From: Blasia pusilla
Taxonomy: Eukaryota
Direction of reading: 5' to 3'
Assembly: GCA_050084515.1 (NCBI GenBank)
Contig: CM114271.1
Location: forward strand, 4,216,001 to 4,280,000
DNA length: 64,000 nt
The notes beneath the pieces were generated by a model that was not told the DNA's origin, searched no databases, and saw only the letters and a list, made by a program, of their open reading frames with translations. The translations under genes were made by a program, and so were the position numbers. Shown here in pieces: positions 4,618-51,541 of the stretch (position 1 is its first letter; each line of letters starts with the position of its first letter).

Positions 4618-4661
<44 letters not shown>

Positions 4662-4727: not shown

Positions 4728-4768
<41 letters not shown>

Positions 4769-13000: not shown

Positions 13001-13312
13001 CCCGACCTCAAGAGGCTTTTTGGGAAAGCCGTACTATGACAAGCTATACAAATTTACATTGACTTGACTTTCGCCCTTTCCCCTCGCCGTATCGTAGGAT
13101 AGCTGAAACTACTATGAATGGTTTATGTGTTGGGTTTCACATGCTACGGTCCAAAATGCTTCTCTCTTCGCGTCGACAGGCTAATTCCAAGCTCATTTCG
13201 CACTCCCGTGTGCCTTTCTTCGTCAGCCGGTGGTACTAAGTCGAGATCAGGAGCCACATCACAAGGAAGCCCACAAGGAACCCCAAAAGAGAGTAAAATG
13301 TTCTACGGCGTT

Positions 13313-25600: not shown

Positions 25601-26586
25601 TCCGATGTTATGACATTGGGAGGTACGCCCATCGAGGTGTTTCGGCTGGCTGCTATGCTAGGTGAGCGTGGAGTTGGAGTTCTTGCATCACGTTCAGAGG
25701 TGATTGCAGAGGAGGTGATGGACCTGCCCTTGGAGCTTATGCTCAGGCCGTCCACGTTAGATTCATGGTAGGCTACGGCTGCTAGGATGGCGGAGATGCC
25801 CACTAAACCCGCGATAGAGCGTGCCATGGCTTCACCTGGTGTTGTGTAGTTGGATAATCGGGGAGAGGTCTTCGAGTTGGTGAGTCCAGAAGGTAGAGCT
25901 TTTAGTCCGCAACGCGTCTTGTTGGATTCAGGAGCGCAACCCTTGATGTTGGGGAAAGCGTCATTCAGAGGATTGGGTTTGATGAGAGCCAATGTAGAGC
26001 GTTGTCCATTCCGGATATAGACATCCTTGGGTGGAATGAGTACCACCCAGTATATTACCCAATAATAGGTCATGGTGAGGATTCGCCCGGGACATCCTAC
26101 AGATGAGTCCGTGGTGCGAGCCAAGGCGATAGTGACTGATGGAGAGTCCTACGAGGTCTTGGTTGGTGGAGCAGTGTTATACCCGATGGTGTTTTCATTG
26201 GATTACTGGGAGAAGTCAGGGTCCTACAGACCAGGATGGCAGTCAGGTGATGGGCGCCTTAGCTCATTACCCTTTCGATTCAAAGGTGCAGTGATCGAGC
26301 GACGTCTAGGAGAGATGGCGACCTTAGCAGCATTGAGCAGTGCCATCACTTGGCCTAATGATTTGATTGAGGGACATGTCCATACAAAGGATACTACCGT
26401 TCCTAACATTTCTATGGAGAGGAGTGTCATGGTAGTCGCATCAGTCCGTGGAGGAGAGGTGCCGCTTTGGGGCTCGATTGAGGAGCTTCGACGCTTAGCC
26501 ACTAAGCATGTACAGACCGCGTGGAGCGAGATGTTTGCACTAGAGTGTGACGAGTCAGAAGACCCCAAGTAGCTAGGAGTGCCACT

Positions 26587-27590
26587 ATGACCCCTTTGGA
26601 CACCACCCTGATTGTGTGGTGCATCCCAGAGGAGGGTATTCGGGTATTGGATCTCTTTGGAGGGATCAGCACTAGGTTAGTTGTTGTTTTGCAAGCTAGA
26701 GTGCGCGTGCAGCAGTACCTGTATGTGGAGATTGATGATGTTGCGAGGCGCGCTTCCTTTCACCATGTGACGAAATTATGCCTCCGTTTTCCCGACTTAT
26801 TGTCTGCGTCCGCCATTCAGGGTTATGAGAGTTCCCTACCGAGGGACATTTCATTGTTGGAGGCGCAAGACTTTGAGCGGGTAGGGACCATAGACTTGGT
26901 CATTGCTGGTTGGCCATGTCACCGTCAGTTGAGTGTTGGACAGGGTAGCAGATTAGCTGACTCTCGGTCCATGTTGTTTTGGGAGATGATGCGAATCTTG
27001 CGACACTTGCAGGAGCATCAGTCTCGTCCTCCAGCATACATTATGGAGAATGTACCAATTTTGGGCGATTCGAGGTCCCGTGTGGTGACGAGCGCACAGC
27101 AGGTGCGGGCATGGATTGGCTCGGTAGTTTTTTTGGATGCGTCAAGTGTGGGTTCACGAGCGCATCGCCCGTGTGTGTGGTGGACCAACTTGGTGCCACA
27201 TGAGGTGTTACGGAGGGCTTATGCGCGAGTGGGGCTTCCCTCCGAGTTTTTGGTGGATTCTATATTGGATCCGGGCCGTCGATCATTAGCAGTGAGGCAC
27301 GCTGATTGACCGTTGTTGACTGTGGTCATCAGGATTAGCATGCCACGGGCAGCCTTTCCCACATTGGTGAGTTTTCTTGCTTCCTATGCATTCAAGGAGG
27401 CCGGGCCTGGCTTGGTTTGGGATGACTAGGAACAAAGGTTGGTGGAGCCCAACGCCGATGAGCGAGAGCGAGCAATGGGATTCCCTATAGGAGTGATGGC
27501 AGTACTATCACTATCAGAGGCATCACGATGTCATGTATTGGGTCAGGCGATGGACCTAAACTGCTTGACATGGTTTTTCAACTTAGGAGT
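26587..27590 (+). pseudogene. DNMT3-like C5 cytosine methyltransferase domain of element 1
   Basis: Motif I IRVLDLFGGIS; II YVEID; IV DLVIAGWPC; VI YIMENV; VIII LDASSVGSRAHRP..WWTNL; IX ERERAMGFP; X VLGQAMDL. Internal stops at 27307 and ~27427. Confidence 0.9.
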
Positions 27591-29840
27591 AGTTGAGTAG
27601 GGTCGTTTGAGGATGCGACAGATCACAACAGTTGCGTTGGTGAGCCCCGTGCCTACCAAGACGATTAAGGCAGGGGCTGGGGCAAGATCCGAGGAGTCCA
27701 AGGTAGTCTCTCCCGATCACCACGGATGATCGGGAGAGACACCCTTGGACTTCTTGGGATGTTTTGCAGATACGCCAAGAGATGGTAGCCACAACATTGA
27801 GCGTGGTTCCGGGTACTGCACGTGGAGATGAGAGTTCTACTGTCCGAGACGGGGTTGCACCATAGCAACCACCAACACCCGCGCCAAAGAGTCCTACCGA
27901 TGGAGACTTGGGAGCCAGATATGGGCCCTAAGTTGACAAGAGGAGAGCGGCGCCGGATACATCAATTCCTGAGGAGTTATAGGAGCTATTTTGCATTTAG
28001 CATGCAGGATTTGGGTACGTTGAAGGGTCTAGGGATCCCCATTGAGTTGTCGAGTGACACGCCGATCTTCCGATGATCCTACAAATACAGTGATATGGAG
28101 AGGGCTCTGATTCAAACTAGGAGCCAGAACTTGGTTAGAGCAAGACTAGTGAAGATGTCGCATGGAGAGTATGGATCTGCCACTATCATGCCCGCCAAGA
28201 AGGATGTGCATGGCAACTGGACGGATAGGCGGATATGTGGAGATTACCGACCTATCAATTGGCAGACAAAGCCCGATAGGTATGCCATGCCCACCCCTGA
28301 GGAGATCTTTGATATGATTGGGCATGCAAAGGTATTCAATTCATTGGATTTGCAAGCCGGATACCATCAGCTGCCTATCAGATTGGTGGACAGGCAGAAG
28401 ATGGCATCTTGGGGCATTGATTCTCACGAGAAGGATTGTTTGTACCAGTGGCTGTCCTTACCATTCGGGTTAAAGAACGCCCCGGCTGAGTTTCAGAGGA
28501 TCATGGATAGGATCTTGGCATGTCTCGATTTTGCTAGGTGTTATATTGATTACATCGTAGTCTTTAGCATCATGGTTGAGGAGCATGAGGGACATCTAGA
28601 GAAGGTGTTTCGATGATTGCAGTTACATGGGTTGAAGCTACATCCAGGCAAGTGCAAGTTCTTCTACGACCAGATTGAGAACTTGGGTCATACAATATAC
28701 CCAAGGGGCCTTGATGTGCAGCAAATGAAGGTATAGGCTATTTCACGCCCTACAGATGTGAGTCAAGTTTGTGCATTCATGGGATTGGAGAACTTCTATC
28801 GACGGTACGTCAAGGGTTTCAGTTCGATTGCAAAGCCGCTAACCTTGCTGACCAAGGTGGATCAGGAGTGGCATTGGGGGGATGAGCACGAGAGAGCATT
28901 TCAGCTGCTCAAGGATAGATTGATGTCCGCGTCCATATTGAGGAGACCGATCAGGGGGCTTCCTTTCCAGTTGCATACCGTTTGGAGCATGTTGGGGCTT
29001 GGAGCCGTGCTCACCCAACATGACGATGATGGTAGAGAGTTCGTGATGGCTTATGCTAGTCGCTCGAACAACGCTGCAGAGGCAAAGTATAGCTTGTATG
29101 AGGGTGACTGCTTGGCTGCGGCATGGGATGTTGCATATTTTAGGTGTTATTTATTCGGCAACCCCTTTACCATCATTACTGATCATCAGCCACTTAAGTG
29201 GTTGATGGAGTTCGACAAGCTTACAGGGAAGCTTGCGAGGTGGGCTCTTATGTTGCATGAGTATGACTTCCAGGTGGTGCATAGACCTGGGACGCTCAAC
29301 CAGGATGCATAAGGTTTGAGCCGTAACCCATATGGGAGTCAGCGAGATGCGACTGGAGCTCGTTGGCATGGTGAGAGTGATGAGGAGTTGGTGCCAAGAT
29401 GGCACGCATCAGCTTATTTCGGCTTGTTGGCTATGGGGCGCCAGATTGCTGAGACTTCAATGGCAAGGTTTGATGGAGAGTCCTTAGATCCAAAGGCCGG
29501 TGAGGAGACAACTGGTGGCCGAGACATTCACGACTATGGAGTGTTCTTGGAGTATATGCGTACTGGTAGCGTCGCGAGCATAGTGGGTACTAGAGAGCGG
29601 GATCGGATCCTATAGCAAGCCAGACGGTTCCGGTGGGAGGGGACACATGTGTTGTGATTTTGGGAGGATGGTAGAGTGCGTGTGGTGCCTCATCCTTCGC
29701 AGAGAGCACGTTTATTGCGTCATGCCTACGAGGAGTTGGGTCATTTTGGAGTGAAGCGAATGTACAGCTTGCTCCATATACAGTATTGGTGGCGAGGCAT
29801 GCAGACTGACGTTCAACAATTTATTGCCCAATGCATGGTG

Positions 29841-30866
29841 TGTCGCAACCCTAATAACCAAACAACACCAAATAGGCGCCAAGAGGAACATCAAAACTCA
29901 AGGGGACTCACGTTGCGATGTTTGCGCTTTGGAGAGGCGTTTGGAAAGGTCTCTTGGAAAAGTCCAAGAGATGAAACGCGGAACAGATTTGTATGTTTCA
30001 TGCGTTAGTGGTCGCGACCAGGAATACTAGACCAAACGCGAGCCAAGACTTGAGATGAGTTGAGTCTTGGAAGGTTGGTTGCCAAAGAGGTAAGAACCAG
30101 TTTTGGAACACGACTAGCAATTGGGGAATTTGACTGTATTTTGGACCATAACGTTTATCCCCAAGATGAGTTGGGGACAAATAAGGGCGCGTTAGAAAGC
30201 TTATCTTGAGAAGCTTCCAATGCACTAAAGATCTTAGCAAACGCTTAAGTATGGATTGAGATATTGGCCACAAATGATTGTATGAGCAATCGGGTTGAGG
30301 GCCAATTGGAGAGGCCCGGGTGTCTTTCCCTAAATATAGGGAACCCCAGAGATCCCCAGATTACTAGTAAAGGAGGATTCTCTCCAAGATGGCTTGGAAC
30401 ACGAATCCCCACTTTGAGCACCAAACGCCAAACTCCATCACCCCACGGGATGGAGTTTGGCGTTGGAACTCGAAACCCAAACCTAATCCAAGGGAGTGGA
30501 CTTTGTACGCCACCCTTGGATTCCAGCCCGAGATTCACTTTGTGCAAGTGTTGGTTTGGGACTCATTGGATGTCCATCGGATAGTTTGAACCGCCAGGCC
30601 CGAAACGCCGTTTGAAGTTCCTGAACCGACCAGAAAGTCTATCCCAAGTCTTTCGAAACTTGCCCGTGTTGTAAACCGCAAAACTAGGAAGGTTGAGCTT
30701 GATGAGAGACCAAGACGAGAACTCGGAAAGTTAGCTTGCTGATTGATCCAAGACCCGACTAACCAGAGTGCATGTTTGGATGCAGATCAACGTTGAGAGT
30801 AAGACCTACTGAACGCACGCTTCCGCAACAACAAGATTAACGTTCAAGGAGAGTAGGCGCACGACA
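29841..30866. mobile_element. Solo LTR of another family nested in element 1 integrase
   Basis: TGTCG...CGACA termini with 5-bp TSD TGGTG (29836-29840 and 30867-30871). Removing it restores QCMV|CDRVRASFN, matching element 2. Confidence 0.9.
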
Positions 30867-32172
30867 TGGTGTGTGATCGAGTCCGAGCATCGTTCAATTC
30901 TCCGACTCCACAGTTGCATTCACTTCCAATCATGGATTTAGGTTAAAGATGTTGTTTGGATTTTGCAAGACCTTTGCCTTTGACGGAGCGCTATAGTCGT
31001 TATGTGTTGGTGATGGTCGAGCACTTCTCGAAGTGGATAGAGTTGGTTGCATTGCCTCACAAAGCGAGTGAGAGAATAACGTATGCCTTCCTAGATCGAG
31101 TGTTGAGTCATTATAATACACAAGCTAAGGTGTTGAAAGACCAGGGTATAGAGTTTCGCGGGGAGTTTCAGGCCTTGTGTGATCAGGCGTTGATCGGCCA
31201 CCGCACTACTTCGCGAGATCATCCTGAGGCGGATGGACTAGCGGAGAAAGCGATGGTGACAAGAGGATTACGCAAGTATGGCTTGCAAAGAGGTCACCTA
31301 GGAGATTGGGAACTCCAGTTGCCGTGGTTGGCGATGGAATACAGATTCAGCAAGTAGGCATCCTTAGCGTCTTTCCCATCGTACTTCCTTTTCTATGGCC
31401 GAGAGCCAGATTTACTTGCGGCCATTCGTCAAGATGTTGGTCAGGTGTTGAACCTTCATGATCATGATGTATGGATGCGAGCATGTTCTCAAAGGACTGA
31501 GTTGTTTCGAAGAGTGATGCCCATGGCGTTTGAGAAGTTGGCGATTGCACAACATCGGGATACGTTGAGCAATGCGAATATTTGAGGAGGTGATTATCGA
31601 TCTACTATCCGGAGGTTTCATCAGGGAGACTATGTCTACTTGCAGCAGACGGCACCCACGATGTTGGATGTGATTGTAGGGCGTACCATCTTGAGAGTGC
31701 GTGAGGTTTTGCCATCAAGTATTCTCTTATTGGAGGGACGCGATGGTATGGTTTGGAAGGACCATATGAGTAATTGTGCGTCGTGTCACCTTCGGAACAT
31801 TGACGGTACAGTTGATCCGAGTTTAGCAGTAGTTCCTGCAGGCTTGCAATGTATGTTGTGTGGTTATGCCCGTGGTGCAGCCACTATGCTAGTCTGTGAT
31901 GGATGTTTGAGAGGATGGTATATGGCATGCTTGACGCCACCTCTCACTAGGGTTCTTCAGGAACGATGGATGTGTCCCAGATGTACATAGAGTAGGTAGT
32001 TCTACAATCCAACTTGTGTCTGTGACATGGATGATAAGAAGGTGACTAACAATGGGGCCACATGAGCACCCGGCCTTCTTGCTCTTAGCATCCGAGAGAT
32101 GTATGTCATGGTAGGTAAGGATAGATGGCTATCTGGAGTTAGAGGGATCTAACCACCAACTAGGGGGGCGAT

Positions 32173-32961
32173 TGGAGATATTTTTGTACTTCTTGTTTCG
32201 TTGTTTGGATGCCATGAGTTAGCATGGGATCGTGTGTGTTTGTATGTGTGTTCGGTGACAACGATGTATATTGTGTAGGGATGTATATGCGCACGACAAT
32301 TGTCACGTCTTTTAGGATAGATCGGAGAGATCTAGAAGAGCGCCTTTGTGAGTAGTGGAGGATATGCTCAAGAGGTCAAGGATGACCTGCTGAGGCCCTG
32401 GGAAACCTGCTCTCTCAGGTTTCCCAGGGTCTCTCTTAGGTTCCCCTTCATTTCGGCTCATTTGGAGCCATATTGAGGAACTTGCTATTTTAGGTAAATA
32501 CCATTTTGAGTATATGGTCAACTTTCTACTTTTGTTAAATGGCCCTTGATCTCCTACATCAGGTTAAGAGCCAAGGAGGTGACTTGGGAGCATAGGTTAC
32601 TATGGAGAGAGCTTGGGAGAGGGGAGGGGTATACCTTAAGGAGAGAGAGCTTGAGAGCTCATTCTCTCGTTGTTGAACCTCTTGGCACAAGGTGGCGGAG
32701 CTATGGTCTTTTTCCTTGTGAGTGTAACCCAAGCCTCTCATTAGGAGAGTGGGTTTGGTTTGACATGGAGAGAGATATGTGAGAGTGCACACATTTGAGA
32801 GCGATGGTGTAGAGAGAGATTGGATCTTGATTTACTGGAGATATTTTGGTACTTCTTGTCTTGTTGTTTGGATGCCATGAGTTAGCATGGGATCGTGCGT
32901 GTTTTTGTGTGTGTTCGGTGACAGCGTTGTATATTGTGTAGCGATGTGTATGCGCACGAGA
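32173..32961 (+). repeat. Element 1 3' terminus A1-AT-B2-A2, preceded by PPT AGGGGGG (32162-32168)
   Basis: A1 (32173-32298) and A2 (32836-32961) are 126-bp direct repeats flanking B2; junction CGACA-AT-TGTCA at 32294-32305. Confidence 0.92.
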
Positions 32962-35604: not shown

Positions 35605-38449
35605 TATATGTTAACTAGTGCACTGAAAATGCCTCCACTCTTACTTGTGTCATGCAAATTAGCGAGATGTAGTAGCATGTCATTCACACAAATTTAAGTT
35701 TTTAAGATGATAAACATCTATCTACTCACTTAAAAAAATTGATTTCATTTCAAAAATATTTCAACTCTAGAAAAGGAAAGAAATACCCCATCATTATATT
35801 ATGAAGTTTTATTTATAACATTACTTCTTGATTAATTCACCTAATTTATTTCAATCTACCTAATCTAGTTTCATCACGTGCTCCATTCACAAATAGCTTC
35901 ATATAACGCAATGATTCCCCTTATTTTCTTTCCACAAGAGATGATTTGACACCTCTTTTTTTTAAATAGCTTCACTTCTTTTAGAATAAACTTCCCTCAC
36001 ACATTAACACCACTTTCCTTAATTAATAGTATAGATTATAACTAATTTATCTCTTTTGGGCATAGAATAGTATCATCAAGAAGAAAAAATCACTAAAATC
36101 CTCCCATAAACATTTTCAAACTTTCTCCCTCCACGGTGTACATTAAATGGACATAAGTGAACTCAATAAATATGGGAGGTTATGATATCGATACCTTTTT
36201 TTATCCATAAAAGTTCATCAAAATCATTGAAACAAAGTGATAAATGTTACTCATATTCATAAGACTTTGTGTTGCATATAAAGGTAGCATTAGTGAGTGA
36301 TCTCTATGAATTATTAGGAGATATATTATTGTAGTCATTCCTTCAAAGTTTTTATAAATTTGAGAGTGGAATGTGCACAAATGAGTATGATCATACCTTA
36401 AGAAATAATGAACAAAATGGAGAAAAAAATCATGATATTAAAAATATGGTCATGGTAAATTTTTAGTGATGGTGTTTCTATGTAAGCATTATTATGCCAT
36501 TAAGGTTTTGGCTATGATTCTACCATATATTCCATATTGATGTCAAAATAGAAAATCATATGCATTACAAAAAAGTGTGCTCTTAGTGTACACAAATTTT
36601 GACCAAGAAAACCTAATAAGAAGTGTCAAAGCACAAAGGAACTAACACATGTATAATCTACGGTCAAGCAAGAACTTGTTTAGAAAGTGACAAGTAGCAA
36701 AAATATAAGAATTTGCTTACAAGATCGAGCTCTTTCCTTGTTCCAATTTCTTTTGTGGCTAATATCTAGAATCAATTTTTTAACAAGTAAAAATACATCC
36801 TTGGAAAGGTATTTAGAAATGTTATAATGCACCTCAACAATTTTGAAAGTATATCTAGACAATTTACAAAGAAGTAATTTCTTAGCTCTAGATCTAAACA
36901 TCTCATAAATACATGAAGGGAAGGGAAAAGTTCCAAGTGGCTACCGATCATCTTTTGGGTAATTTCTTAATGTGATTTCTACACTATGATATTAGGGTGC
37001 ATAAGTAGTAAAAAATAATTACCATGGGAAGTTTAATATGAAAGAAGAAGTGGAGAGACTTGGAGTGAGGAAGAGATAAATTTCTTAAGGGAAGGTGGAT
37101 GACTTTTTCTTCTCTAAGTGAGGAGGTAGAGAATTTGGGAACCTTGTTTTCCTCAATTAAGGAAGGATGATAGTTTCCAAAATGAGGAGGATGAATTGGG
37201 GGTTTTCTTATTCCCAAAACTAATAGGTGGAAAGGATGAATTTCCAAATGAAGGAGGGGGCCATGGAGTGAACTTTCAAAATGTGCAATAAAGGAAAAAG
37301 TGCATTGAAATTTTCTCAAAATGAGCATAAGAATTTGTTATGTTTAATTTGTGCAATGCATGAGCGCAATAAATCTTTTCTTTATTCAATAGACTTCCCT
37401 CTTAAATATGAAGCACTAAAGAGACAAGAAAAACCATACAAAAAAAAGCCACAAATATTTTCCAATAACCAAGAAGGGGAAACTATCAAACATAAAATAG
37501 AGAATGAGAATATCCCACAAGAAAAAATAGACAATGCATGAATTATTTAATACTATTAATAATTTGTGTGCAATGTATGAGAGTCATATTAACATGTACC
37601 AAATTCTTATCATGTTAGATAGTTTTCCAATCCACATTTTTTTTTCATAGAAAAAAGCCATTTAAACAATACGATGAACTCTTTGAAAGACCGGATGCAT
37701 CAACATTCCATCATGAGGCTTCACTTAGTTTAGAATATTATTTCCATGATAAGCTCTATTATTTTAATTCTAAATTAGATGAGTATTGTTCCATTCATAC
37801 TTAGCCACATGCAACCTAGTGATTTCCTTATTTACTTTCCATAAGAGATGATATGATACTTCATATTTGCCTCTTGAAAATAGCTACAATTCTCTTCGAA
37901 TTGACTTTCCTCACATAAACCCTCTTCCCATTGTCCCTTACTCAATTAATAATATAAAGGCTATACTATATTTTACATGACTTAAAAGAAGGATGGCAAG
38001 TGTTCAAGGTGGAATATGTCCACTACTAAATCTTGATATGTTAAGACTACAAGAATACTCATCAACTTTCTTATGTCATCCACTAGGCATCCCTCTCATC
38101 AATGTTAAAGTTTGAGTGTGATAACTATCTTTCCATTTTTTTAAAATTCCCCTTTTCTATTCTCATAAAATGATTCCAATTATGAATATTCCAACTTTAT
38201 GCTAGGCAAGAATATCTCATCTTTCAGATTTATGACTTGCAAGGTGTATCCCTAATGGCATTCCTTCATCCTCGCGTGCTTCACTTTGCCAAGCATACCA
38301 ACTTAGCTAATTGGATGTCATCCAAGTTGGCATGTATCCATTGTATGAGTTAGTGGTTGATATTGTGGATACTGGATCCTTCACATCCTCCACTACTAGT
38401 ATATTCTTTGAATTTGGGCGGAAGAAATTGTGATGTTCCTCTAAATCTC

Positions 38450-39032
38450 TGTCGTGCGAATCCACATCGTCATACAACATACATCGCTGACATACCATAC
38501 TCACATACATACATAACATAGACGAGAGCATCCACAAACACAAGTGTACCACAACTGAAATCCGTGAAAGACCTACTGTCATAAAACACGTATAGAATCA
38601 CATACAATCGAGCCAAACCCACTCCACGATGGGAGAATCTAGGTCGAAGCTTGCAGGAGACACCATAGCCAAGAGCTCTACTCACTACCAAGGCTTACTC
38701 CCAACACAACAGGCTCAACTCAAAGAACTGACTGTTCTTTGAGTGCACTCCACCTTATATCCTCCAACCTAAGAGTGGGCCCTACTGGAGAAGTCACCCT
38801 CAACTGAGTAACCCCCAACCCTATGTATGAAATTGCATCTCTACCTAGACACTGCGGCCCTACATAAGGTATGGCCTCTACTAGCACACTATACTCTACG
38901 ACATAATCCGTATGGTCATGACAGCTGTCGTGCGAATCCACATCGTCATACAACATACATCGCTGACATACCATACTCACATACATACATAACATAGACG
39001 AGAGCATCCAGAAACACAAGTGTACCACAACT
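38450..39032 (-). repeat. Element 2 3' terminus A1-GC-B2-A2, preceded by PPT (plus-strand C-run 39033-39039)
   Basis: 107-bp A repeats flank a 368-bp B; junction TGACA-GC-TGTCG at 38919-38930. Confidence 0.95.
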
Positions 39033-39203
39033 CCCCCCCTAACTAGCGGTTAGGTCCCTCTAACTCCCAGGTAGCCTTATACATCTACTACATGCTATAA
39101 ACCTTCTTCGGTGCACGAATCAGAAGGCCGGGTGCTAGGTTGCCCCATCGTTAGTCGCACATCTATAATCCATATCATGCAAAGATCAAGTCATCTACCT
39201 CTC

Positions 39204-42200
39204 CTAAGTACATCGAGGACAAACCCACCTTCCTGTAGGAACAACATCCATACGTGGAGTCAAACACATCATGTGCCAACCCCTAGAACACCGATCACAC
39301 ACCAACATACGGGCTGCGTTACCAGCAGACCCACACAACATGCACCTCAAGCTAGCACGTTTCATGGCTAAGCTTGGGTCAACAGTACCATCCACATTTG
39401 GAAGATGAGATGGCGCACAATTACGCACATGGTCCTTCCAAAAAACTCCATCACGATCCTCCAACATTAGAACTCCAGAAGCTAACACCTCGCGCACTCG
39501 TAAAATAGTACGGCCTGCCGTCACATCCAACATTGTCGGTGCAGTCTGCTGCAAATAGACATAGTCCCCCACATGGAACCTATGAATCGATGGTCGATAA
39601 CCTCCACCCCGAATGGTTGCATACCGCAACGTATCCCTCTGTTGAGCAATTGCAAGATTCTCATAGGCTGTTGGCATAACTCTCCGAAAGAGCTCTGCCC
39701 GCTGAGAACACACTCTCATCCACATCTCTGGGTCATCAAGGTTCACCACCTCACTAGACTCCGACAATTGATCTTTGGCAAGTCTGGATCTCGGCCGTAT
39801 AACAGAAAATAAGGTGAGAAGGAAGCCAAGGATGCTTGGCAACTGAACCTATACCCCATGGCTAACCATGGCAACTGAATATCCCAGTCTCCAAGATGCC
39901 CCTTTTGTAGGCCATACTTGCGCAATGCCTTCTTCACCGTCTGAACCACACGCTCAGCCAAACCATCCGCCTCTGGATGATCTCGAGACGTGGTCCGATG
40001 ATCAATCAACGCCTTGTCACACAAGACCTGAAACTCACCCTAAAACTCTGTACCCTGGTCGGTCAACACTTCATCTGGTGCACCAAAATGACTAAGCACT
40101 CTATCAAGAAACGCATACGCCGTTCCCTCACTTGCCTTGTCAGGTAACGCCACCAACTCAATCCACTTGGAGAAGTGCTCCACCATCACCAACACATATC
40201 GATGATGTCGTACAGTCAACGGTAACGGTCCCGCAAAGTCCACACTCCAATGGTAATCCAACCCCATAATAGGCAAGGGGTGTAACTGTGGTGTAGGGGC
40301 ATTGAATGATGCCCTCACCCGGTCACAAACCATACAACGTGACACCAACTGCTGGACCTGAGTATGCATGCCACGCCACCAATACTGACCAAGGAGTAAG
40401 CTATACGTACACTTTAACCCAAAATATCCCAACTCCTCATGGGCATGTCGCACAATCCGCTCTCTCTGAGCCAAATGCGGCACTACTCGTACTCTACCAT
40501 CCTCCCACACACGGAGAATATGTGTTCCCTCCAATCGATACCTCTTAGCACGTTGAAGAACACGGTCTCGCTCCTTGGCACTCACTATGCCTGGCACCCT
40601 ACTGGTCCGTGGGAACTCCAATACCAACGCATCATGATGAATATCACGCTGATCCGTACCACCATCTCCAACCTTAGGATCTGAAGGCTGGCCATCTCCC
40701 CTCTGACTAGAGTAAGATATCATGTGGTTCTCCATACTAGAGTCCACCCCTAACCAACATAAAAAGGTGGATGCATGCCAACCTGGCACCATCTCCTCAT
40801 CAACCTCGCCATGCCATCTAGCCCCAGTTGTATCCTCTTGGCTAGTACATGGGTTCCTACTCAACCCATCAAAGATCAAGGTTGGCAACTCCGTTCTATG
40901 TACCACCCGGAAGTCATACTCCTGTAAGATAAGAGCCCACCGTGCAAGCTTCCCTGTAAGCTTGTCAGACTCCATCAATCACTTGAGTGGCTGATGATCA
41001 GTAACAAGGGTAAACTGTGTGCCAAACAAGTAACACCTAAAGTGTGCCACAACCCACACTACAGCCAAGCACTCTCCCTCATATGAACTATAACGCGACT
41101 CTGCTGCATTATTCGAACGACTTGCATATGCCACCACAAACTCCATGTGCTCATCATCATGTTGTGTCAACACCGCTCCAAGTCCCAACCTACTCCAATC
41201 AGTGTGTAACTGAAATGGGCGCCCTCTAATAGGTCTCCTCAAGATAGGCGCCGCCACCAACTGGGCCTTAAGCTCCACAAAAGCTCTCTCCTGATCATCT
41301 CCCCATTGCCACTCTTGATCTGATTTCAGCAATTGGTTCAAAGGCTTTGCCATAGCACTAAATCCCTTCACATACCTCCGATAGTAGTTCGCCAATCCCA
41401 TGAATGCTCGAACTCTACTCACATCTACCGGACGTAGAATAAGTGCAATAGCCTCCACCTTTGCTTGCTGAACTCCCAAACCACCTGGATAGATCACATG
41501 ACCCAAGTACTCAACATCCTCATGGAAGAACTTACACTTTCCTGGATGCAAACGTAGACCATGAGCTTTCAACCGCTCAAACATCATCTGCAAATGTATC
41601 TGATGCTCCTCCATCGTGTTACTGAACACCAAGATATCATCAATGTAACATCGAACAAAATCCAACCCTGCTAGGATCCTGTCCATCACTCTCTGAAACT
41701 CAGCAGGTGCATTCTTCAACCCAAAGGGTAAGAATTTCCATTGGTACAAACAATCCTTGCCATGAGAGTTGACACCCCAAAATGCTGTCTTGGCCTTGTC
41801 ACTCTCCCGAATCGGAAATTGATGGTATCCTGCCCGAAGATCCAAAGTACTAAAAATCTTTGCCTGTCCCACCACATCAAAGATCTCCTCAGGTGTAGGC
41901 ATGGCATACCTATCGACCTTGGTTTGCCGATTGATAGGACGGTAATCTCCACACATCCGCCTATCCGTGTAGTTGCCATGCATATCCTTTTTAGCAGGCA
42001 TGACAGTGGCTGATGCATACTCTCCATGCGACAAATCCACTAATCTAGCCTCCAAAAGGTCCAACGTCCTACTCTGAATCAGGTCCCTCTCCCTATCACT
42101 ATATCGGTAGGGACGACGGAAGATTGGCGTATCACTAGCCAAATCAATCCGTATACCGGGTCCAACCAGAGAACCCAACTCCTTCATGCTAAAGGCAAAA

Positions 42201-45200
42201 CAACTCCTATAAGCATGTAGGAACTGTGTCAAGCGTCGTTTCTCACCTCCCGTAAGCTTGGGCCCAAGTAATGGCTCCCAAGTCTCCTCCACTGACACAC
42301 TAGAGGGAGAGGACGATGCCATTAGCTGCTACGCAACCCCCTCACAAGATGGTACACCCTTAGCTACACCATCATCTGAGCAAATAACTCCTCCACCAGC
42401 ATGAGCAACCAACTCCACATGCCCAGCCATTACATCCCATTTACTCCAAGGATGCAAAATACTACTCTCCTCGCCCCCAGCCGATGCCTCTACCGTCCCG
42501 GTAGCCATCGAGCTCATTACAAGGGGTGGAAGATCCACATACATAGTCTGAAGTCAACGCTGCTCGGCCATACCAAGACTCAAAATCCAAGTCAAACAAT
42601 TCAGGTCCATGGCCTGACCCAACACATAACGTCGTGAAGCCTCAGAAATGGAAGCAACCGTTGTCACACCAGTAGCAAATCCCATCGCACGCTCTCTCTT
42701 ATAAGCATTAGGCTCCACCAACTGTCGCACATGAGAATCCCATACAAGCCCAGGACCACCTTCCCTATATGCATGTGACGAGGGAAAACTCACAAATGTG
42801 GGTAGTGCCATCCTAGGCTGGCCCACACGGTTCACCACTGCCATGGGTGACCGATCAATAACCCTCACCACCTGAGAAAGTCGCCCAGTATCCAAGATAC
42901 TATCCACTGTAAGGGAAGGTATCGCTGCACTGCATTATATGCTCGACGTAGAACCTCCCTAGGCAACAAGTTTGTCCACCACAAGCATGGACGATGTGCA
43001 CGCGAGCCAACTCGCGCTGCATCTAACAACACCGCTGGTCCAATCCAAGACCGCATCTCATGAACACTCGCCATCATCCGGGTCCGAGTGTCACCCAACA
43101 ATGGAACATTCTCCAGAATGTAAGCTAAAGCACGTGCCTGATGAACCTGAAGATGTCGTAACACCCGTAACATCTCCCAAAACAATCGAGACCTAGGGTC
43201 GTGTAATCCCTCACCACGACCAGCACGTGTATGACACTGACATGGCCATCCCGCAATCACCAAATCCACAGGACCAACCCTCTCAAGGTCCTGCGCCCCC
43301 AACAATGCAATGTGTGACGGCAAAGCACGCTGGTACCCACGAATAGCTGATGGCGGCAACAACTCAGGATATCTCCGCATCAACTGACCAATATTTCGGG
43401 ATGAGACTCTCTGGGCCGTCTCATCTCGCTCCACATACACGTATCTCCGCACAGGAATACCGACTTACAACACTGCAACCAAACCAGTGCTAATCCCACC
43501 CAAGAGATCTAACACACAAATGCCCTCCACCGGATACTGCCATACAATGGGTGTAGTATCCAAAGGGATAATCCAACTGGACCAGAAGTAGGAGTCCGCC
43601 GTGGGGCCTCCTCTTCCTCGTGAGGTATAACAGCCTCACACCAAGCCTCTTGCACTAGGCGATCAGCCTCCTGCCGTAGTGCACCGCCTGAACTCCAAAG
43701 TGGCACATCCAACGATGAGGATGCCACTGCTGCAAAAATAGTGACCTCCTCTACCTCCTCATGCGCAGGAGAATCCATAGCATAAACATTACCCTCCAAA
43801 AAGTCTCCTGGCCAAGTGACTACTCCACTAAAACCAACCACAGATGCTAACACTGTTGGGGAAGACCCTCTTGGTCAAGCCCCATAAATAAATCTCACAG
43901 GAACTTGGCTCATACGTCCATCCCCGCACTGCCAACCAAGTCTATAAGACGTTGTCTCGGTCCAGTAATCCATCCAAAAACCCATCGGGTACAATATTAC
44001 TCCTCCAACTAGTACATCATACGACTCGGCTGATGTGACTACCGCAGATACTCCCAACCGGGAGCTATCAGTCGCATGATCTGGTCTCAACTATACAGAA
44101 AACTTCTCTCGTGTCATGAATTGAGACCTATCGTTGGCTCCTCCAAGTGATGTTTGAATCTGGAATGGGCAAGGCTCAAGCTCTGACCTCCGAATACCCA
44201 AACCAATACATGCCGCCTTTCCCAACATCAAAGGTTGGGCACCAGAGTCTAACAAGACTCTATCTGGTCTATACACATATCCTGTAGGACTCACCAATCA
44301 GAATATCCCACTCCGGTTGTCCAACATACATACACCAGGTGTAAGCCTCTCACGATCAATGGCTGGCCGGGCGGGTAATGCATCCATCTTCGCCGTTGCT
44401 GCCTGCCAAGTAGCATTGGTACTCAATGCTACACTTGACATAGAGGGTCTCTCCACCGCAAAACCCTCATCCACCTCAACACGTGTAGCAGTAACACCCC
44501 CACGTTCACACAACGTGGCTGCTAGCTGAAATACAGGAGCTAAGTCAACTCCTAAAGCCATCAACTCCGTGGCCGAAAAAAATGGGGATCCCAACACTGA
44601 AGTTTCCATCCGCAATACTGCACTAGATGCTGCATCCGTGTCTACTACACGCGATGTAGATGCCTCAGTCCCCACTGTCGGCTCAATAGGTTGCGTAGGA
44701 ACCATGGATGGAGTCCTAAGCACCTCAGACAATAAGAATGACTGGGGAAGCCTAGCCTGCCTCCCAGCCTCACCCCTTTGTGGGTCCAACTCCACAGTAG
44801 CACCACGTGGCTGTGATGCTCGAGTGGATCCTCTCGTAACTGCAGCTGATGCCTCAACCTGTGCTGCACTTGCCATATAAGAGAAATCATCCCCTCCATA
44901 AGAGGTGGAAGCCCCTGCTCCCGAACCTGATCTATGTTGGATCCCAGCCATAGTAGCCAACTCGCTCCAATCTGCTCAATCTGGCGACCATAGATGACTC
45001 TGTCGTAGTGGTAGGGGTAGCCACCGTAGGCTCTCCAACCACTGGTCCACCTCTACCACCCCTACCACCTCTACCACCTCGGCCTCTCGGAGCTACTCCA
45101 CCACGGCCGCGGCCTGATCTCAACTCTGGATGAAGATCAAAGCAACGCTCTCGAGGATGACCTGGTCTCCCGCAATGATCACACTGAGTTGGGGCCGACT

Positions 45201-46400
45201 GAGGCCCATCCTCCAAAGTCCGTCTCCCATCCTCTTGGGACAAAACTTCCTAACATGATCACCTCCACATGTCTAACATGACTGTCCTTGCTGCGGGGCA
45301 GCAAATGAAGGAAATGGTCTCTGCGCAAGTGTCCCTCTAGGACCTGACTGAGGTCGTGTGTACCCCCCACGACTCCCACTACTACTACCACCACCACTAC
45401 TACGAGACTATGAGGTGGGCTGCTGAACACGAGAAGTAGTAGTTGTATCCCTACTGAATGCGGATGTCACCACTCTCTCCTTCACCATGTTAAGCTCAAT
45501 CTTCTCAGATAGAGCAAACACATGGGTCAATGTGGGTGAATCATCACTCATAAGAGTAGCATCACGTACCCTGCGGCGCAACTCTCTGTCCAAGATCCCA
45601 TACCAAAACAAGACTGCCTGAGCCTCAGTCACACCCTCGGTAACTAAAATCAAGCGTCGCATATGAGTGTATGCCTCACGAAGACTCTCACTAGTCTTTC
45701 GCTCAAATTCTTGAAGACTCCTCAACTTCTCTGTCTTCACTCCCTGATAGTTCTTCTTCAACCTCTTGAAGAACTCTGCAACCGGGCTAAACGACGGTGG
45801 GGCACTAGTACCTCCACTAGTACCTCCATGGGTACCTCCACTGGTACTCCCAATCCGGCTCGTACTCGTACTACCCAACGTCAGGCTAGCTGGCATAGTA
45901 GGAGCACTACTACCAATACCACCATGGGTGATAGACACATAGCCTGGAGACCAATATTGTCTCCACGCCTAAATCTCAGCAACATGGTCCTTCCTAAACT
46001 CATGGTAATCATCCATGGGTGGTCCCTCCAAGTGCTGAAACAACCCCTTCCAAGCCAAGAAGGATGTAAACAACGTGGCGTTCCGCAACATCTGCATATC
46101 ACACCGCGTATCAAACTCCTGCATGAAGTCCTCCAACTCAATGGTGCCCATTGCACCCGAGTATTGTCGTGGGCCCTTCATGGCCCCATATATCTCATCC
46201 ATGTCCCAAATCAATGGAGCTGCAACACTCGATAACAACGTAGAAGACTCGGTGTTTGGAACACCCTCGTCCTCCTCTTCATCAACGGTCGGAAGTGGAA
46301 AAGGTAGCCGATACCTAAATCCACTCCGTGTGAAACCACCACTGTCCGCACCACGGTCCCCAACCAGACCACCCGACAGCTCCGTGATGACCAATGCCAA
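39204..46400 (-). pseudogene. Element 2 gag-pol polyprotein: gag (CCHC knuckle, RGG tract), PR, DNMT, RT, RH, IN, PHD
   Basis: CDHCGRPGHPRERC; VLLDSGAQPL; RT YIDD intact; RH LHTDWS..SYEGECLA..TDHQPL; IN WSVDFAGP/LTDQGTEF/GLAERV; PHD C4HC3. Adjacent ORF pieces are mostly in one frame, separated by point stops and a few frameshifts. Confidence 0.93.
42560..43560 (-). pseudogene. DNMT3-like C5 cytosine methyltransferase domain of element 2
   Basis: ICVLDLLGGISTGL..YVERD..PVDLVIAGWPCQ..SRLFWEMLRVL..YILENV..LLDAARVGSRAHRP..WWTNL..RERAMGF..VLGQAMDL, with one stop and a frameshift. Confidence 0.92.
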
Positions 46401-47915
46401 TGCCGCACCACCACCAAATTACCACCACTAAGTAACCAAGTGACGTCGATGTCGCTATACTATTCTAGCTCTACTAGCTATGGGTGTAGGCAACCTAACC
46501 TCTCATCACCACATGAAGCCTCCCACGGTCTACTGGTCATCACTCCAGCCTCACTACCGGTAGCACATAGGAGTAACACTACTCTGGAAATCAGCGTCAA
46601 CCCTAACAATGGGCGTGCAAGCAAGAAGCAACGATGGAGGGGATCCAAACACAGGAAGTCCAACGACAACCCTCCAATTGCAAATGGAAATCAAGATAAC
46701 ACAATCCACAAACGTGGCGCCCCCTGAACCCACAAAACCCACCACACAATTCTAACGCAATAGTTACTCCGCCGCGGGTCGATGACGTGCTAGTCGAACT
46801 CGCAGCACCTGAAAATATCACTTGCATGGAGAGGCTACACCGTACTATACGCTAGAGGTACATCAACCAAAAACCTGAGATGCATAAAGCGCCTAACATA
46901 TCTTCGAACAGCACCAAATGAGCTACAATAGTGTGTACACTGGCATAGTTAAGAACTCAGCAGCTAAGCGTCCTCTAGGCACAATAGCCCAAAGATGGAT
47001 GACCAGTTATGCAACACTCAAATCATAAATCCTGCAAAAATTGCCTAACGCCCAAGCAAGCAAGCTTGCTTGCTTGCTCCTTGCTCCTTACTCCGCCTCT
47101 CACGCCCACTCGCCCCGACCTACCACGAGTTGCATCGAAGCCTCAAAACGCCGAGAAATGCTCGAGACATGCCCCTATCGCCACGCTTGCCATGCTTCGC
47201 TATGGAGATAGGCCCAACCAGGGCGCCCCCAATGGGATAGGCGTCTCCAAAAATGAACGAGTCACCAACCAACCAGCCCCTCCGATCCGCTGTCCACCAT
47301 AGCTAGACCTTGAGCTAGTCCGCAAAATTTTGATCAGCAATTACTTCACAAATCCTTGACCAAAATTGAATCTATTTTGACCAAAATTCAATTGGCCACC
47401 ATAGCTATCTCTCCACAAAAAATCAGCTACAACGGAGCTCTGTACTCCGAGCTAAAAATCAGACAAACTTGCTGTCCATACACCTCCAGAATCGCAAATT
47501 CGACAGCGCTTCAGCCCAGTTTCATGCACGCAGAAATCCGCAACGCTCCACACACTCGATCAAATAGCTTCACATGAGATCACAATACAAGTAGCAACAA
47601 GAACCTCTCACCCGATCTGGATGAACTTCAACAGAGCTTCCGCACTCCACGCTCTCCTCATCAGAAAACCGTCCAACACGAACCAGAATCTTCAATCCTT
47701 GATAACTTCCAACTCCCTTGACGAAATCCAGCGATCTAAAGCACGTTGTAAAGCTCTCAGCAAGGCGCTTCTTTCCCAACCAACCAGGCACCAGATTCAC
47801 ACCTCCAACATAGGCCACAAGCCACGAACATTCACGGCCGAGTACACAATCAACCCTAACCAGATCCTACTGATCCACTATCGAAGCTACCATCGATCTA
47901 TTCTAGTTCTTTGAG

Positions 47916-48283
47916 TGAAATTCGTGAAAGACCTACTGTCATAAACCACGTATAGAATCACATACAATCAAGCCAAACCCACTCCACGATGGGAGAATCT
48001 AGGTCGAAGCTTGCGGGAAACACCATAGCCAAGAGCTCTACTCACTACCAAGGCTAACTCCCAACACAACAGGCTCAACTCAAAGAACTGACTGTTCTTT
48101 GAGTGCACTCCACCTTATATCCTCCTACCTAAGAGCGGGCCCTATTGGAGAAGTCACCCTCAACTGAATAACCCCCAACCCTATGTATGAAATCGCATCT
48201 CTACCTAGACACTGCGGCCCTACATAAGGTATGGCCTCTACTAGCACACTATACTCTACGACATAATCCGTATGGTCATGACA
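47916..48283 (-). repeat. Element 2 repeat B1 (5' terminal, promoter-bearing)
   Basis: Copy of 38556-38923; minus-strand ATATAA at 48120-48115 and Inr TCAGTT with +1 at ~48089. Confidence 0.93.
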
Positions 48284-49083
48284 TCTCTAAAAACCATTGT
48301 ATGTTCCTTTGGGTGCGTCGCCTTACGATCATCTCTTATCACTTCTTATAACTTTATTGGCTTCTTCTATTCATTCAACTAATTAAATAACATAATCACT
48401 TCTCGAGCTTGATTCCTTATTCTTATCATATTGTATCTATGATCTAACCCTTAAGAAACATAAAGTAAACAAAATACTGGCATGACATTATGTAATTAGA
48501 TTGATGTCTACTACCATCCCTCCCAAGGTATTTAGGATGCCCAAACATACCATAAACCTTGCAAACTCAATCGATTTTCTTTCCTTAAGATATAACATTA
48601 TACCACATGATTCCTTTTTTTTAAAAAGAAAATCTCGATTGTCTTAGAAAATTCTTTCCTAACTTAAATATTGCTTTCTCCCTTCCAACTCGCATCCCCT
48701 CTCATCAATTAATAATATAGATTGAGAAACAAGAGAGAAACAAGAGTAGGAAGATTAAACCTCCTAAGAGCAACATTCCTTGCTGTTAGAACACAACTCC
48801 AAAACTTATTTCTTAGGTATCTTACAGAGTAAAGCGAACAAAATAATAATTAAAAGTGAAATTATGGACATTATTCTACCAATCAATGTGAAATTCATGA
48901 TTTTGAATAGGAATGAAAGACCTCTCCTATCCTTCACGACAATGTATAAATTGCACTAAAGAAATCTAAGTTCCATTAATGTGTGGAGTATTTTATTTTT
49001 GCACAATGGAGGAAAAGATATTGTATTAAAACAGAATGGCTATCAATTGATAATATTAATAAGAAAAAAAAGCAGAGTGGATA

Positions 49084-49249
49084 CTAGTAAGGACTCATGT
49101 CATGCACGGATCCCTATTTATCAATAATTTGCATTAATATGCCACTCTCCTTATCTATATGACCCCAAAAGTATTTTTTGAGGGAATAGTGCTACGTGTC
49201 AAATAGAGGAGCAACTAGAAAAAATTTCCTCCTCCAATCAATATGTAGA
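49084..49249 (-). mobile_element. Degenerate non-autonomous Helitron
   Basis: The minus strand has a degenerate GTGCATGACATG hairpin then CTAG+T; 5' end approximate. Confidence 0.4.
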
Positions 49250-51541
49250 TGGATGTGGAGTATGTAATACTTCATATCACAAAACAAATTTTATTTGTCT
49301 TGAGATGGAAGAGATATGCATAATGGTAATACTACTAATAATAATATTAAAAAATCTATGCTAGCGAGCTTATCAATGCATGGTGCTTGTTTGTAGTACT
49401 CATGTGGAGCTTGAAGAATGAGGACGTGAAGGGAAATAAGTTAGGAAAACGTCGATTCGAGATCCATATGCGAAAAAAGGAAAAGAAAAGAAAAGAAACA
49501 GTGGTGAAGAAAATGTGATATGGAAACTTCAAATTATAATTCACATATTTTATAAAGTAAATTCTCCACATCCCCAATCCAGAATGTAATATAAATAGAA
49601 ATAAAATAATTATTTCTGAATTATTGAAAATATCCGGGCAGCAATTACCCTCACCATTTCCTTGGATTTTCCTCTGCATAGTCATCGAGTTAAACAAACG
49701 ACAGTCTTCATCCCTCTGGAGTCCATAAGCAAGTCAAAGTTCACTTCATAAAACTCACTTTACTCTGAAGTAAGATGTTCTTACTCAGACTTCCGCTCCT
49801 TTCCCAACCACATACAACCGATGAGGAAATTCTCATACTGGATGTGGCACAATCAATCGTGATTTCACTACAATCCATGACTCATGACTAACGGACACTC
49901 TCCGGATGGACGGTGGGGTTTGTGACAAGACATACATTTCTGTCTAACTAATCAAAGGTAAGTGTAATGAGAATGTGTTTATCCACACAATAGTCATGGT
50001 TGCCACTCAAATGTTGTTTATAAATAATTTTTAGTTTATTCCAATATTCTATTATTAGATTTTGTAACAAAATGCTAACCCAACTTACGCGCTCCTCCCC
50101 CCCACCTTTCTTTTTGAGTACTATTATTTTCAGATGTCATTAAATAAATCTATATCTATTATTATTATTTTTCTTTCCAATCCCTTTATCATCTATCACT
50201 TACCGTGCATGGCTCTCATGGATCCAACACATCTATGTGCCCTTTTTCTTTCCATCCAACATCTATAACGAGGAAAGAAAATTTATAAGAATTTTTTTTC
50301 ACGAGATATTCATATTTTCTAACGTGGACTTCCATGATAAAAAGACATTTAAAATGAATATTATATTTATGCAAGAAATTTTATATAGATTTCTCAAATT
50401 TTGTATACCTTCCTCCTTCTTCAACTCTATAAATCTATTTTTTTATATTTAGATTATGGCAAGAGATAATAATCATTGGAAAATTATTTAGAGAATAAAT
50501 CAAAAAAGAATTTTCATGTATCCCTTGATAATTTACTTAAATAGGAAAATACAAGCAATGCAAGAGAATTTCATGATATTTTATTTAGTAATTTCCTTTA
50601 ATTCTATTTTCCTCTTAGAACCCACATTTTAATTAATTAATTCATGAACATTTTATCGCAAATTGATATACAGACTAAGGAGTTCAACGATATAGTTTGA
50701 TTCACTTTGACCAAGTAATTTTGCTTTAATGAAATTAGAGTCATAGATATCCTCTAACAAAATCACACAGTCATAAAATATTTTACAGGAAATATAGGGG
50801 GATGATGATAGTTATTATTCGTAATAATAATAATAATAATAATAATACTAATAATTATTATTACTATTATGCATATTAAATCAAAGACTGTTTAGATTCA
50901 AATTTTTGTTCGACCCACATCAAAATTCAATTTATGAGGTTGGCATGTTTGAAAAAGTTATCCACTAATAATAAGTAAATTTAACACTTTCTTAAATTCA
51001 TTTTCATATATTCAAAAATCAATTCATTGAAGTTTTTGAGGCCTCTCAACTCTTTCTTTGGTCGTCGTAGCTAGATTTTTGTTATCTGTTTATTATTTCA
51101 AATTTTTGCTTCATCATTTTTTATATCTCAATACCACACCCATTGCATTTCTCTTTGATTTACTTTGATCATAGAAGTAAAAAGAAAAATGAATTTCAAT
51201 GGTGAATATATATTTTTAATTTTATGGCAAAAATAATAAAGGTACGTTAGTCCAAATTAAAAATACTCTAGAATAATTAGAATCTATAGTATCACTGAAG
51301 GAAGGGATTACTTATATAAAAAAAACATATTTGAAAAATTTAAGTGAAAGTACACAACTTCCACTTTATAATAAAAATAACCTTAATGGTGGATAAGGAA
51401 GATGAAAACCAACCCAAGCTAGGAAGGATGCAAAATAATAATGACAGGTGAAATGAAAAGAGAAAAAGAGAAGACCAAGAAACAACCCAACAAGCTCGGA
51501 TTTCTTGAAAGAAATCCGATACAAACACTACTTATTGATCA

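Follow-up and report, generated by a model that had tools for sequence, protein, structure and literature searches.

Plants defend themselves against transposons chiefly by cytosine methylation, and why a transposon should carry this weapon itself has been a standing question since 2018. The present analysis concerns a 64,000-nucleotide stretch of DNA from Blasia pusilla (hereafter the window; all coordinates are positions within it) and, inside it, a long Ty3/gypsy retroelement, designated element 2, which contains a DNA cytosine methyltransferase (DNMT) domain. In print, retrotransposons of this sort have been ascribed to two hosts only, a dinoflagellate and a charophyte alga. For SymbioDIRS-Dnmt3 an arrangement of repeats in the order A-coding region-B-A-B is printed, and KnitGypsy-Dnmt3 is presented as a combination of DIRS-type repeats with gypsy domains (PMC5890265). 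In the tree printed in the same paper the Klebsormidium elements form a divergent Dnmt3-related clade. SymbioDIRS-Dnmt3 is given there as the one class of retrotransposon DNMT with shown de novo CG methylation, obtained in yeast, and for the DIRS-type elements, to which this demonstration is confined, the authors propose methylation of the complementary DNA (cDNA) (PMC5890265).

Later papers, citing the 2018 work, use the wording "streptophytes (Gypsy-DNMT3)" or simply "streptophytes" and in the passages concerned name no land plant (PMC12344493, bioRxiv 10.64898/2026.05.21.726589, PMC11982613, PMC8616336). For land plants, liverworts and mosses included, no report of a retrotransposon with a DNMT was found in the literature, though supplements and figures may hold such sequences.

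According to the data given below, the stretch in question is very probably the decayed DNMT domain of one Ty3/gypsy copy, whose family carries a DNMT3-type enzyme as a regular and selected part, that is, an element of the KnitGypsy-Dnmt3 kind in a land plant. Its interest lies in the range, which takes in bryophytes including a model species, in the abundance and transcription of the family, and in the placement of the enzyme in the first open reading frame (ORF1) ahead of a stop codon of the leaky type.

Methyltransferase Domain and Its Class

Two long retroelements stand out in the composition of the window by a G+C content of about 50% against 30–38% in the flanks. Element 2 lies on the minus strand and reads in the order repeat A, Gag, zinc knuckle, protease, DNMT, in-frame UAG, reverse transcriptase (RT), ribonuclease H (RNase H), integrase, PHD finger, and repeats B, A, and B (Table 1). 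Its Ty3/gypsy membership is given by RVT_1, RT_RNaseH(_2), Integrase_H2C2, and rve, all of which matched. Pfam matches were obtained in 4 of the 10 ORF pieces scanned (DNMT, RT/RNase H, integrase, and PHD) and in none of the other 6, the Gag and protease pieces included; in the related proteins P0183 and P0024 the models Asp_protease_2 and gag-asp_proteas lie 5′ of the DNMT.

The DNMT domain was mapped to 43566–42557 (−) by tblastn with its closest intact relative, protein P0207, at 81–83% amino acid identity. The PF00145 model matched a 199-residue piece of it (42865–43464) with an expectation value (E) of 4e-9 and 36.8 bits, and the corresponding domain of the second retroelement (element 1) with 38.7 bits, both above the cut-off of 22. 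A preliminary description of this DNA, made from its letters only, had proposed at this very place a retrotransposon-encoded, unpermuted, DNMT3-type enzyme between protease and RT, and the Pfam matches, structure ranking, fold, and motif order bear it out. The complete motif set that it had reported stood in so far as motifs I, IV, VI, VIII, IX, and X were located, in this unpermuted order, but the copy is catalytically damaged, with cysteine at the second arginine of motif VIII, a residue kept by 147 of 151 relatives. Further damage consists of an in-frame stop at 43465–43467 after motif I, a frameshift at about 42920–42934 in the target-recognition region, another frame change at about 43566 on the N-terminal edge, and a stop at 42554–42556 right behind the domain. 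In element 1 histidine replaces the glutamine beside the catalytic cysteine, and cysteine again replaces the second motif VIII arginine. Both window copies are dead.

With regard to the class of the enzyme, the open 252-residue piece of element 1 ranked the solved structures in the order DNMT3A (3e-10), DNMT3C/3B (about 1e-7), DRM2 (1e-3), and bacterial enzymes (0.01 or weaker). A profile of 37 family members gave the same leading group, with DNMT3A at 9e-28, DNMT3C at 2e-25, and DNMT3B at 5e-25, followed at lower ranks by tobacco DRM (3e-15), DRM2 (4e-12), M.HhaI (9e-9), and DNMT2 (5e-6), and no DNMT1 or CMT (chromomethylase) chain was among its 57 structure matches. The AlphaFold model of P0207, with a predicted local distance difference test score (pLDDT) of 91.5, found in Foldseek only DNMT3A/B/C among the matches listed, to rank 49 (E about 1e-18), the target template modelling (TM) score being 0.80–0.85 for chains of DNMT3 catalytic domains; a homodimer prediction for P0207 scored 0.00 against a mark of 0.32, a value that bears on binding in neither direction. 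On this sequence and profile ranking, on the modelled fold, and on the Klebsormidium tree as printed (PMC5890265), METHYLTRANSFERASE is classed as DNMT3-type.

Membership in the DRM group, where motifs VI–X precede I–V, was rejected because the motif order is unpermuted. That the enzyme is of the permuted DRM type or of bacterial type is altogether improbable: the family consensus of motif IV after the catalytic cysteine, CQxxSxAG, presumably resembles bacterial or DNMT1 enzymes more than the DNMT3 form of the motif, but the order of motifs from I to X, the distance of DRM2 and M.HhaI from DNMT3A in the profile ranking (4e-12 and 9e-9 vs 9e-28), and the restriction of all listed fold matches to DNMT3A/B/C argue for the DNMT3 type.

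ORF1 Stop Codon and the Place of the Enzyme

The C-terminal part of the DNMT had been described as sharing the frame of RT apart from point stops. One frame does run from 42934 down to 40040, with stops only at 42554–42556, 42329–42331, and 40976–40978; the TAG at 42331–42329, however, is the native end of ORF1 and no product of decay. Four independent ORF1 proteins, P0158 (...EGVA), P0161 (...QCVA), P0162 (...EQVS), and P0166 (...EEVS), terminate at exactly this position. By tblastn element 2 follows Marchantia ORF1 proteins colinearly from Gag through the end of the DNMT, and in some relatives a single ORF contains zinc knuckle, protease, and DNMT. The enzyme, which had been assigned to the pol region, belongs to a Gag-protease-DNMT product (ORF1) and not to Pol proper. 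Because this TAG is a conserved ORF1 end, the DNMT is the terminal domain of that product, and the RT-RNase H-integrase-PHD part requires passage of the stop.

In 46 related loci spanning the site the codon is TAG in 32, TAA in 13, and GAG in 1, and it is followed by CAA (46/46), CCC (44/46), and ATG (45/46), the frame being kept over the next 26 codons in 45 loci. The type I leaky-stop motif of plant viruses is printed as UAG CAR YYA (PMC11166343), to which the UAG CAG CUA of element 2 is a full match. Passage of the stop by readthrough is the reading preferred here; the alternative is re-initiation at the conserved ATG three codons past the stop. The place of the enzyme in ORF1 before a stop of the leaky type leads to a concrete prediction on its dosage and packaging.

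Family Layouts and Selection

A search of 1.84 billion cluster representatives with the methyltransferase domain gave 1539 matches at E≤1e-3, 599 at E≤1e-10, and 148 at E≤1e-30, and many of the matched representatives are polyproteins of 1000–3400 residues with the domain inside. Pfam scanning of six representatives distinguished two layouts. The first, zinc knuckle-DNMT-RT-RNase H-integrase, is that of the window and is seen in P0014, and the second, RT-RNase H-DNMT-integrase-PHD, is seen in P0008. As far as Pfam matched, P0017 (without integrase and PHD matches) and P0022 (its DNMT at residues 635–961 found by HMMER, without a Pfam DNMT match) also follow the second order. Among the proteins collected, the DNMT stands before RT in 20 and after RT or directly before integrase in 82, and 231 are DNMT-only fragments or ORF1s.

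A midpoint-rooted FastTree phylogeny was built from 151 full-length domains and element 2, with 169 of 320 proteins excluded as lacking a full-length domain. Two clades (support 0.90 and 0.95) match the two layouts with one exception, P0206, and both window copies fall into a clade of 15 (support 1.0) together with Marchantia and Calypogeia sequences. The catalytic residues are conserved throughout: the motif IV cysteine in 149 of 150 domains, the ENV glutamate in 151 of 151, and the two motif VIII arginines in 148 and 147 of 151.

The ratio of nonsynonymous to synonymous substitution rates (dN/dS, Nei-Gojobori) between elements 1 and 2, at saturated dS, was 0.16 for the DNMT, 0.14 for RT-RNase H, and 0.16 for Gag-protease; the value near 1 by which the preliminary description would have abandoned its reading was thus not seen. 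Pairwise ratios were also calculated for the window copies and 80 related loci, the pairs not being independent. At dS of 0.6–1.0 the median dN/dS was 0.22 for the DNMT (n=66) and 0.16 (n=37) and 0.29 (n=35) for the other two regions. At dS below 0.6 the bin medians of these two regions were 0.34–0.56 and 0.31–0.81 (0.54–0.81 without the lowest bin, 5–15 pairs). Higher ratios in recently diverged copies are expected from decay, because most of their differences arose after insertion. Taken on these comparisons of codons and motifs, the family appears to have in the DNMT a regular component of its coding capacity that is held under selection.

A chance capture of the domain, or a neighbouring host DNMT3 pseudogene lying outside the element, was rejected, since two diverged elements have the DNMT in an identical position and frame, so that a sporadic event of the kind considered in the preliminary description does not describe it. 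The broken state of the copy would suit such an origin, and nothing further does; the 148 representatives found at E≤1e-30, with many long polyproteins among them, the RT-like dN/dS, and RNA and summed DNA word depths that are of the same order in the DNMT bins as in the rest of the element leave it next to no probability.

Host Range and Transcription

The host is a land plant, and the window itself holds at 1000–3700 (+) an intron-bearing purple acid phosphatase gene of PAP15/23 type. Its largest exon matched 182 proteins at E≤1e-5, and among the 120 listed all those named by organism are from land plants, the best named matches listed being from Calypogeia fissa (71%) and Sphagnum troendelagicum (73%). 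None of the matches is near-identical, from which it follows that the species is absent from the protein set searched.

Relatives of the methyltransferase were likewise listed by organism. Among 51 long proteins, 16 are from Marchantia polymorpha and one each from Calypogeia fissa, Sphagnum troendelagicum, and Sphagnum fallax, and among 120 listed of 171 matches, 4 are from C. fissa, 2 from M. polymorpha, and one each from M. paleacea, Riccia sorocarpa, and S. troendelagicum. Algal relatives among the 30 clusters looked up are from Closterium sp. (P0024) and Scenedesmus sp. (P0025 and P0157). The extension of the range to land plants, which had been put forward for the case of a land-plant occurrence, holds for the host and for the published record as far as found; the bryophyte relatives (Marchantia, Riccia, Calypogeia, and Sphagnum), however, already stand in public protein sets as "hypothetical proteins", and for this reason the extension is less surprising than it had been rated.

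Transcription was assessed in three RNA runs bearing the species label of the best-matching DNA run, with reads placed at 90% likeness on 37001–50000. RNA depth was about 10–190x over 38.3–48.28 kb, which is element 2, with 44–73x in the DNMT bins (42643–43510) and zero in the flanks, and more than 90% of the reads had the first mate on the plus strand, which in a usual stranded library corresponds to the sense strand of the element. Only 51–79 of the approximately 4,400–4,750 reads placed per run were at least 99% alike, and because these are so few the transcripts are attributed to other copies of the family. In DNA contigs of the best-matching run the summed word depth, which is not a copy number, was 1.7e4–1.35e5 in the element against 0–15 in the flanks, and 3–4e4 in the two bins lying wholly inside the DNMT. 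On these depths the family is highly repetitive, and copies with the DNMT part are not rare; the family is abundant and transcribed in the host although both window copies are dead. As a separate observation, 13–26 reads per run in runs X22–X24 join 39676 to 40684, skipping 1007 nucleotides with nine other letters between, which suggests transcribed deletion derivatives lacking part of the integrase.

With an abundant, transcribed family in a land plant and intact-looking ORF1 relatives in Marchantia polymorpha, the question of why a transposon carries the enzyme reaches organisms with good genetics and methylome tools.

Proposed Mechanism and Alternatives

As the last domain of ORF1 before a stop of the leaky type, the DNMT would be made in the amounts of Gag, and RT and integrase would be made only upon readthrough of the stop. 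The protease would free the DNMT inside the particle, the freed enzyme would methylate the new double-stranded cDNA before or at integration, and the new copy would arrive already bearing the mark of the host. Methylation of the element's own cDNA is a possibility we advance tentatively. The wider proposal, in which DNMT3-carrying gypsy elements are an old, green-plant-wide lineage, still transcribed and split into two clades by the place of the enzyme, with the bryophyte enzyme, that of the laboratory model Marchantia included, made in Gag amounts before a leaky stop and methylating the cDNA of its element, is doubtful when taken as a whole. If it is true, new copies enter the genome already marked, and the DNMT3 system of the plant itself could be supplemented by enzymes of transposons or have exchanged genes with them.

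An active enzyme might instead act on host chromatin, for example by methylating DNA at or near the target site during integration, or restrain the activity of its own family, with the PHD finger of the integrase picking the chromatin. Such a finger (PF00628, E 1e-10) ends Pol in element 2 and is found in the distant relatives P0008, P0022, and P0196, the other clade included, where moreover the DNMT directly precedes integrase; insertion-site chromatin effects and self-limitation are also among the options named in PMC5890265. In the clade of the window, on the other hand, the enzyme sits in ORF1 with Gag and not beside integrase, and we regard this explanation as rather unlikely.

It is improbable that the domain has been retained for some function apart from DNA methylation, such as RNA methylation or nucleic-acid binding in the particle. 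RNA methylation is raised for enzymes borne by long interspersed nuclear elements (LINEs), and in yeast no DNA methylation was obtained with the Klebsormidium enzyme, as reported in PMC5890265. Against such a role stand the catalytic cysteine, the ENV glutamate, and both motif VIII arginines, kept in 147–151 of 151 relatives, the fold and short target-recognition region, which match the DNA enzymes DNMT3A/B/C, and the far lower profile rank of DNMT2 (5e-6 vs 9e-28).

Several points weigh against the interpretation of the family as a carrier of a selected DNMT3-type enzyme that marks its own cDNA. The DNMT3 class rests on ranking, on fold, and on the tree printed for the Klebsormidium elements. 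The dS between the window elements is saturated (1.4–2.8), codons were aligned on the basis of protein matches, and at dS below 0.6 the DNMT bin medians are 0.57–0.67, which weakens the estimate of selection. The related loci were selected via their DNMT, so that its presence "in most copies" is judged with bias, and among 33 related metagenome loci of at least 9 kb none has a plus-strand ORF longer than 449 residues, all being decayed; these loci were used for the repeats, the stop codon, and dN/dS. With regard to the stop, the CAA CCC context of the 46 loci fits CAR YYA at 5 of 6 positions, and the ATG present in 45 of them would fit re-initiation. Protease cleavage, packaging, and cDNA methylation are steps that we infer, and the only printed assay of a Klebsormidium Gypsy-DNMT3 enzyme, in yeast, yielded no methylation and is called inconclusive by its authors (PMC5890265). 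Finally, one relative, P0224, lies on a 2.4-kb contig labelled as a bacterial metagenome-assembled genome (Candidatus Obscuribacterales); this contig is probably mis-binned plant or algal DNA.

Structure of the Elements and Neighbouring Sequences

Element 2 ends in TGTCA...CGACA, and on either side of it lies the 4-bp target-site duplication GAGA (48284–48287 and 38446–38449). The arrangement A-coding-B-A-B is found in elements 1 and 2 and in the related loci L056 and L073, whereas L015 and L036 show B-A-B, their 5′ ends being undetected or located beyond the locus. Three of the four complete copies examined have TG...CA ends and 4-bp target duplications (GCTT, GAGA, and CATA), the fourth, L056, having a damaged 5′ end; the insertion is of integrase type. 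Plain long terminal repeats (LTRs) were rejected because the 5′ end consists of A alone and a second B lies beyond the 3′ A, and DIRS-type membership, with a tyrosine recombinase and no target duplication, because of the DDE integrase and the 4-bp duplications just described. No usual tRNA-complementary primer-binding site was seen directly after repeat A1, and Rfam gave no matches across the window. A G-rich purine run stands directly before B1 and not before A2 (38925–39045, 32160–32300; loci L056 and L073), and the two bases between B1 and A2 vary among copies (GC, AT, AC, and TC); neither the site of the run nor this spacer fits the usual scheme of LTR replication.

Table 1. Features of the two retroelements in the Blasia pusilla window.
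Feature	Position	Strand	Evidence and remarks
Element 2, whole (9,834 bp)	38450-48283	-	repeats by self-BLAST; ends read from sequence
Repeat A1, 5′ end of element 2	47916-48283	-	self-BLAST; 96.8% identity to A2
Gag region	45171-46202	-	Marchantia ORF1 proteins P0161 and P0162, residues 1-334, matched colinearly by tblastn; piece without Pfam match
CCHC zinc knuckle, after Gag	ORF 44932-45249	-	pattern in translation
Aspartic protease region, active-site motif LLDSGAQ	43875-44297	-	translation; piece without Pfam match
DNMT3-type C5 cytosine methyltransferase domain	42557-43566	-	PF00145 E 4e-9; tblastn 81-83% to P0207; motifs
Motif I, LDLLGGISTGL	43512-43480	-	
Motif IV, GWPCQC	43251-43234	-	
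Motif VI, ENVP	43113-43102	-	
Motif VIII, GSRAHRPCLWWTN	43008-42970	-	
Motif IX, RERAMGF	42697-42677	-	
Motif X, LGQAMDLN	42622-42599	-	
Native ORF1 stop with context UAG CAG CUA	42323-42331	-	RT follows, frame unchanged
Reverse transcriptase and RNase H	40979-42328	-	RVT_1 E 1.7e-33; RT_RNaseH_2 E 2.2e-31
Integrase, H2C2 zinc domain and DDE core	39743-40978	-	Integrase_H2C2 E 2.6e-13; rve E 2.5e-11; core runs on in ORF 39743-40039
PHD finger, C-terminal end of Pol	39210-39344	-	PF00628 E 1e-10, residues 169-213 of ORF 39204-39848
Repeat B1	38925-39032	-	self-BLAST; two bases between B1 and A2
Repeat A2	38556-38926	-	self-BLAST
Repeat B2, 3′ end of element 2	38450-38556	-	self-BLAST; 1/108 positions differ from B1
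Element 1, gene order as in element 2	22184-32961	+	self-BLAST; ends and target duplication GCTT from sequence
Element 1 repeat A1	22184-22696	+	self-BLAST
Element 1 repeat B1	32173-32296	+	self-BLAST
Element 1 repeat A2	32300-32835	+	self-BLAST
Element 1 repeat B2	32836-32961	+	self-BLAST
Element 1 DNMT domain, one frame, two stops	26596-27597	+	PF00145 E 1.1e-9, 38.7 bits, stops read as X

The nucleotide identity of elements 1 and 2 is 71.6% over 1953 nucleotides, 71.5% over 1316 nucleotides, and 66.2% over 995 nucleotides of the methyltransferase region. Because they are only 66–72% identical, the two represent two old lineages and not copies of one insertion, element 1 being an older copy of a diverged lineage. 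Approximately 1 kb in the integrase region of element 1, at 29822–30865 (+), has no counterpart in element 2, where the homologous flanks are contiguous at 40347/40333; this extra stretch is probably a nested insertion.

Elsewhere in the window, a third, unrelated Ty3/gypsy-like piece at 60000–62100 (+) contains zinc knuckle, protease, and RT (the RT of P0014 matches 61059–61583 at 39%), and no methyltransferase was seen in it. Imperfect tandem repeats of about 90–190 nucleotides with long (CT/AG)-like runs translating as SLSLSL are situated at 4500–5200 (+), and the G+C-rich region at 9000–18000 (44–53%) shows many overlapping low-complexity ORFs on both strands.

Comparison with Known Systems

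Compared with the host enzymes DNMT3A/3B/3C, the element enzyme is alike in that their catalytic domain is its best match by sequence, profile, and fold, with the normal motif order and a short target-recognition region. It is unlike them in an identity of only about 20–22%, in lacking PWWP or ADD on the same chain, and in being an intronless part of a Gag-protease polyprotein. The boundary between ORF1 and RT resembles the type I leaky stops of plant viruses as printed in PMC11166343, element 2 having UAG CAG CUA there with RT in frame, whereas the 46 related loci read CAA CCC, which agrees with 5 of 6 positions of CAR YYA. With chromoviruses the elements share a chromatin-reader module at the C-terminal end of the integrase, which is a chromodomain in chromoviruses and a PHD finger in element 2; membership in that group was rejected, since ORF 39204–39848 matched PHD-type models only in Pfam, with no chromodomain match.

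Among retrotransposons that carry the enzyme, SymbioDIRS-Dnmt3 of Symbiodinium, as described in PMC5890265, carries its DNMT3-type domain within Pol, and its repeats are likewise arranged as A-coding-B-A-B. It differs in its tyrosine recombinase, in contrast to the DDE integrase (rve, H2C2), TG...CA ends, and 4-bp duplications of the window elements.

The nearest counterpart is KnitGypsy-Dnmt3 of Klebsormidium nitens, to which the window elements were compared by its printed description, and whose host is an alga and not a land plant (PMC5890265). No Klebsormidium sequence was found among the 30 clusters looked up or the organism-named matches listed. The acquisition of the enzyme is printed as having occurred "in the K. 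nitens lineage" (PMC5890265), and the relatives of the window elements are from liverworts, Sphagnum, Closterium, and Scenedesmus. The two agree in the following features: both are of gypsy type with an unpermuted DNMT3-related domain inside a polyprotein, both combine A-coding region-B-A-B repeats with gypsy domains, and in both the DNMT appears to be under purifying selection, the printed Ka/Ks (the corresponding substitution ratio) being below 0.2 and the ratio in the window family 0.16–0.22.

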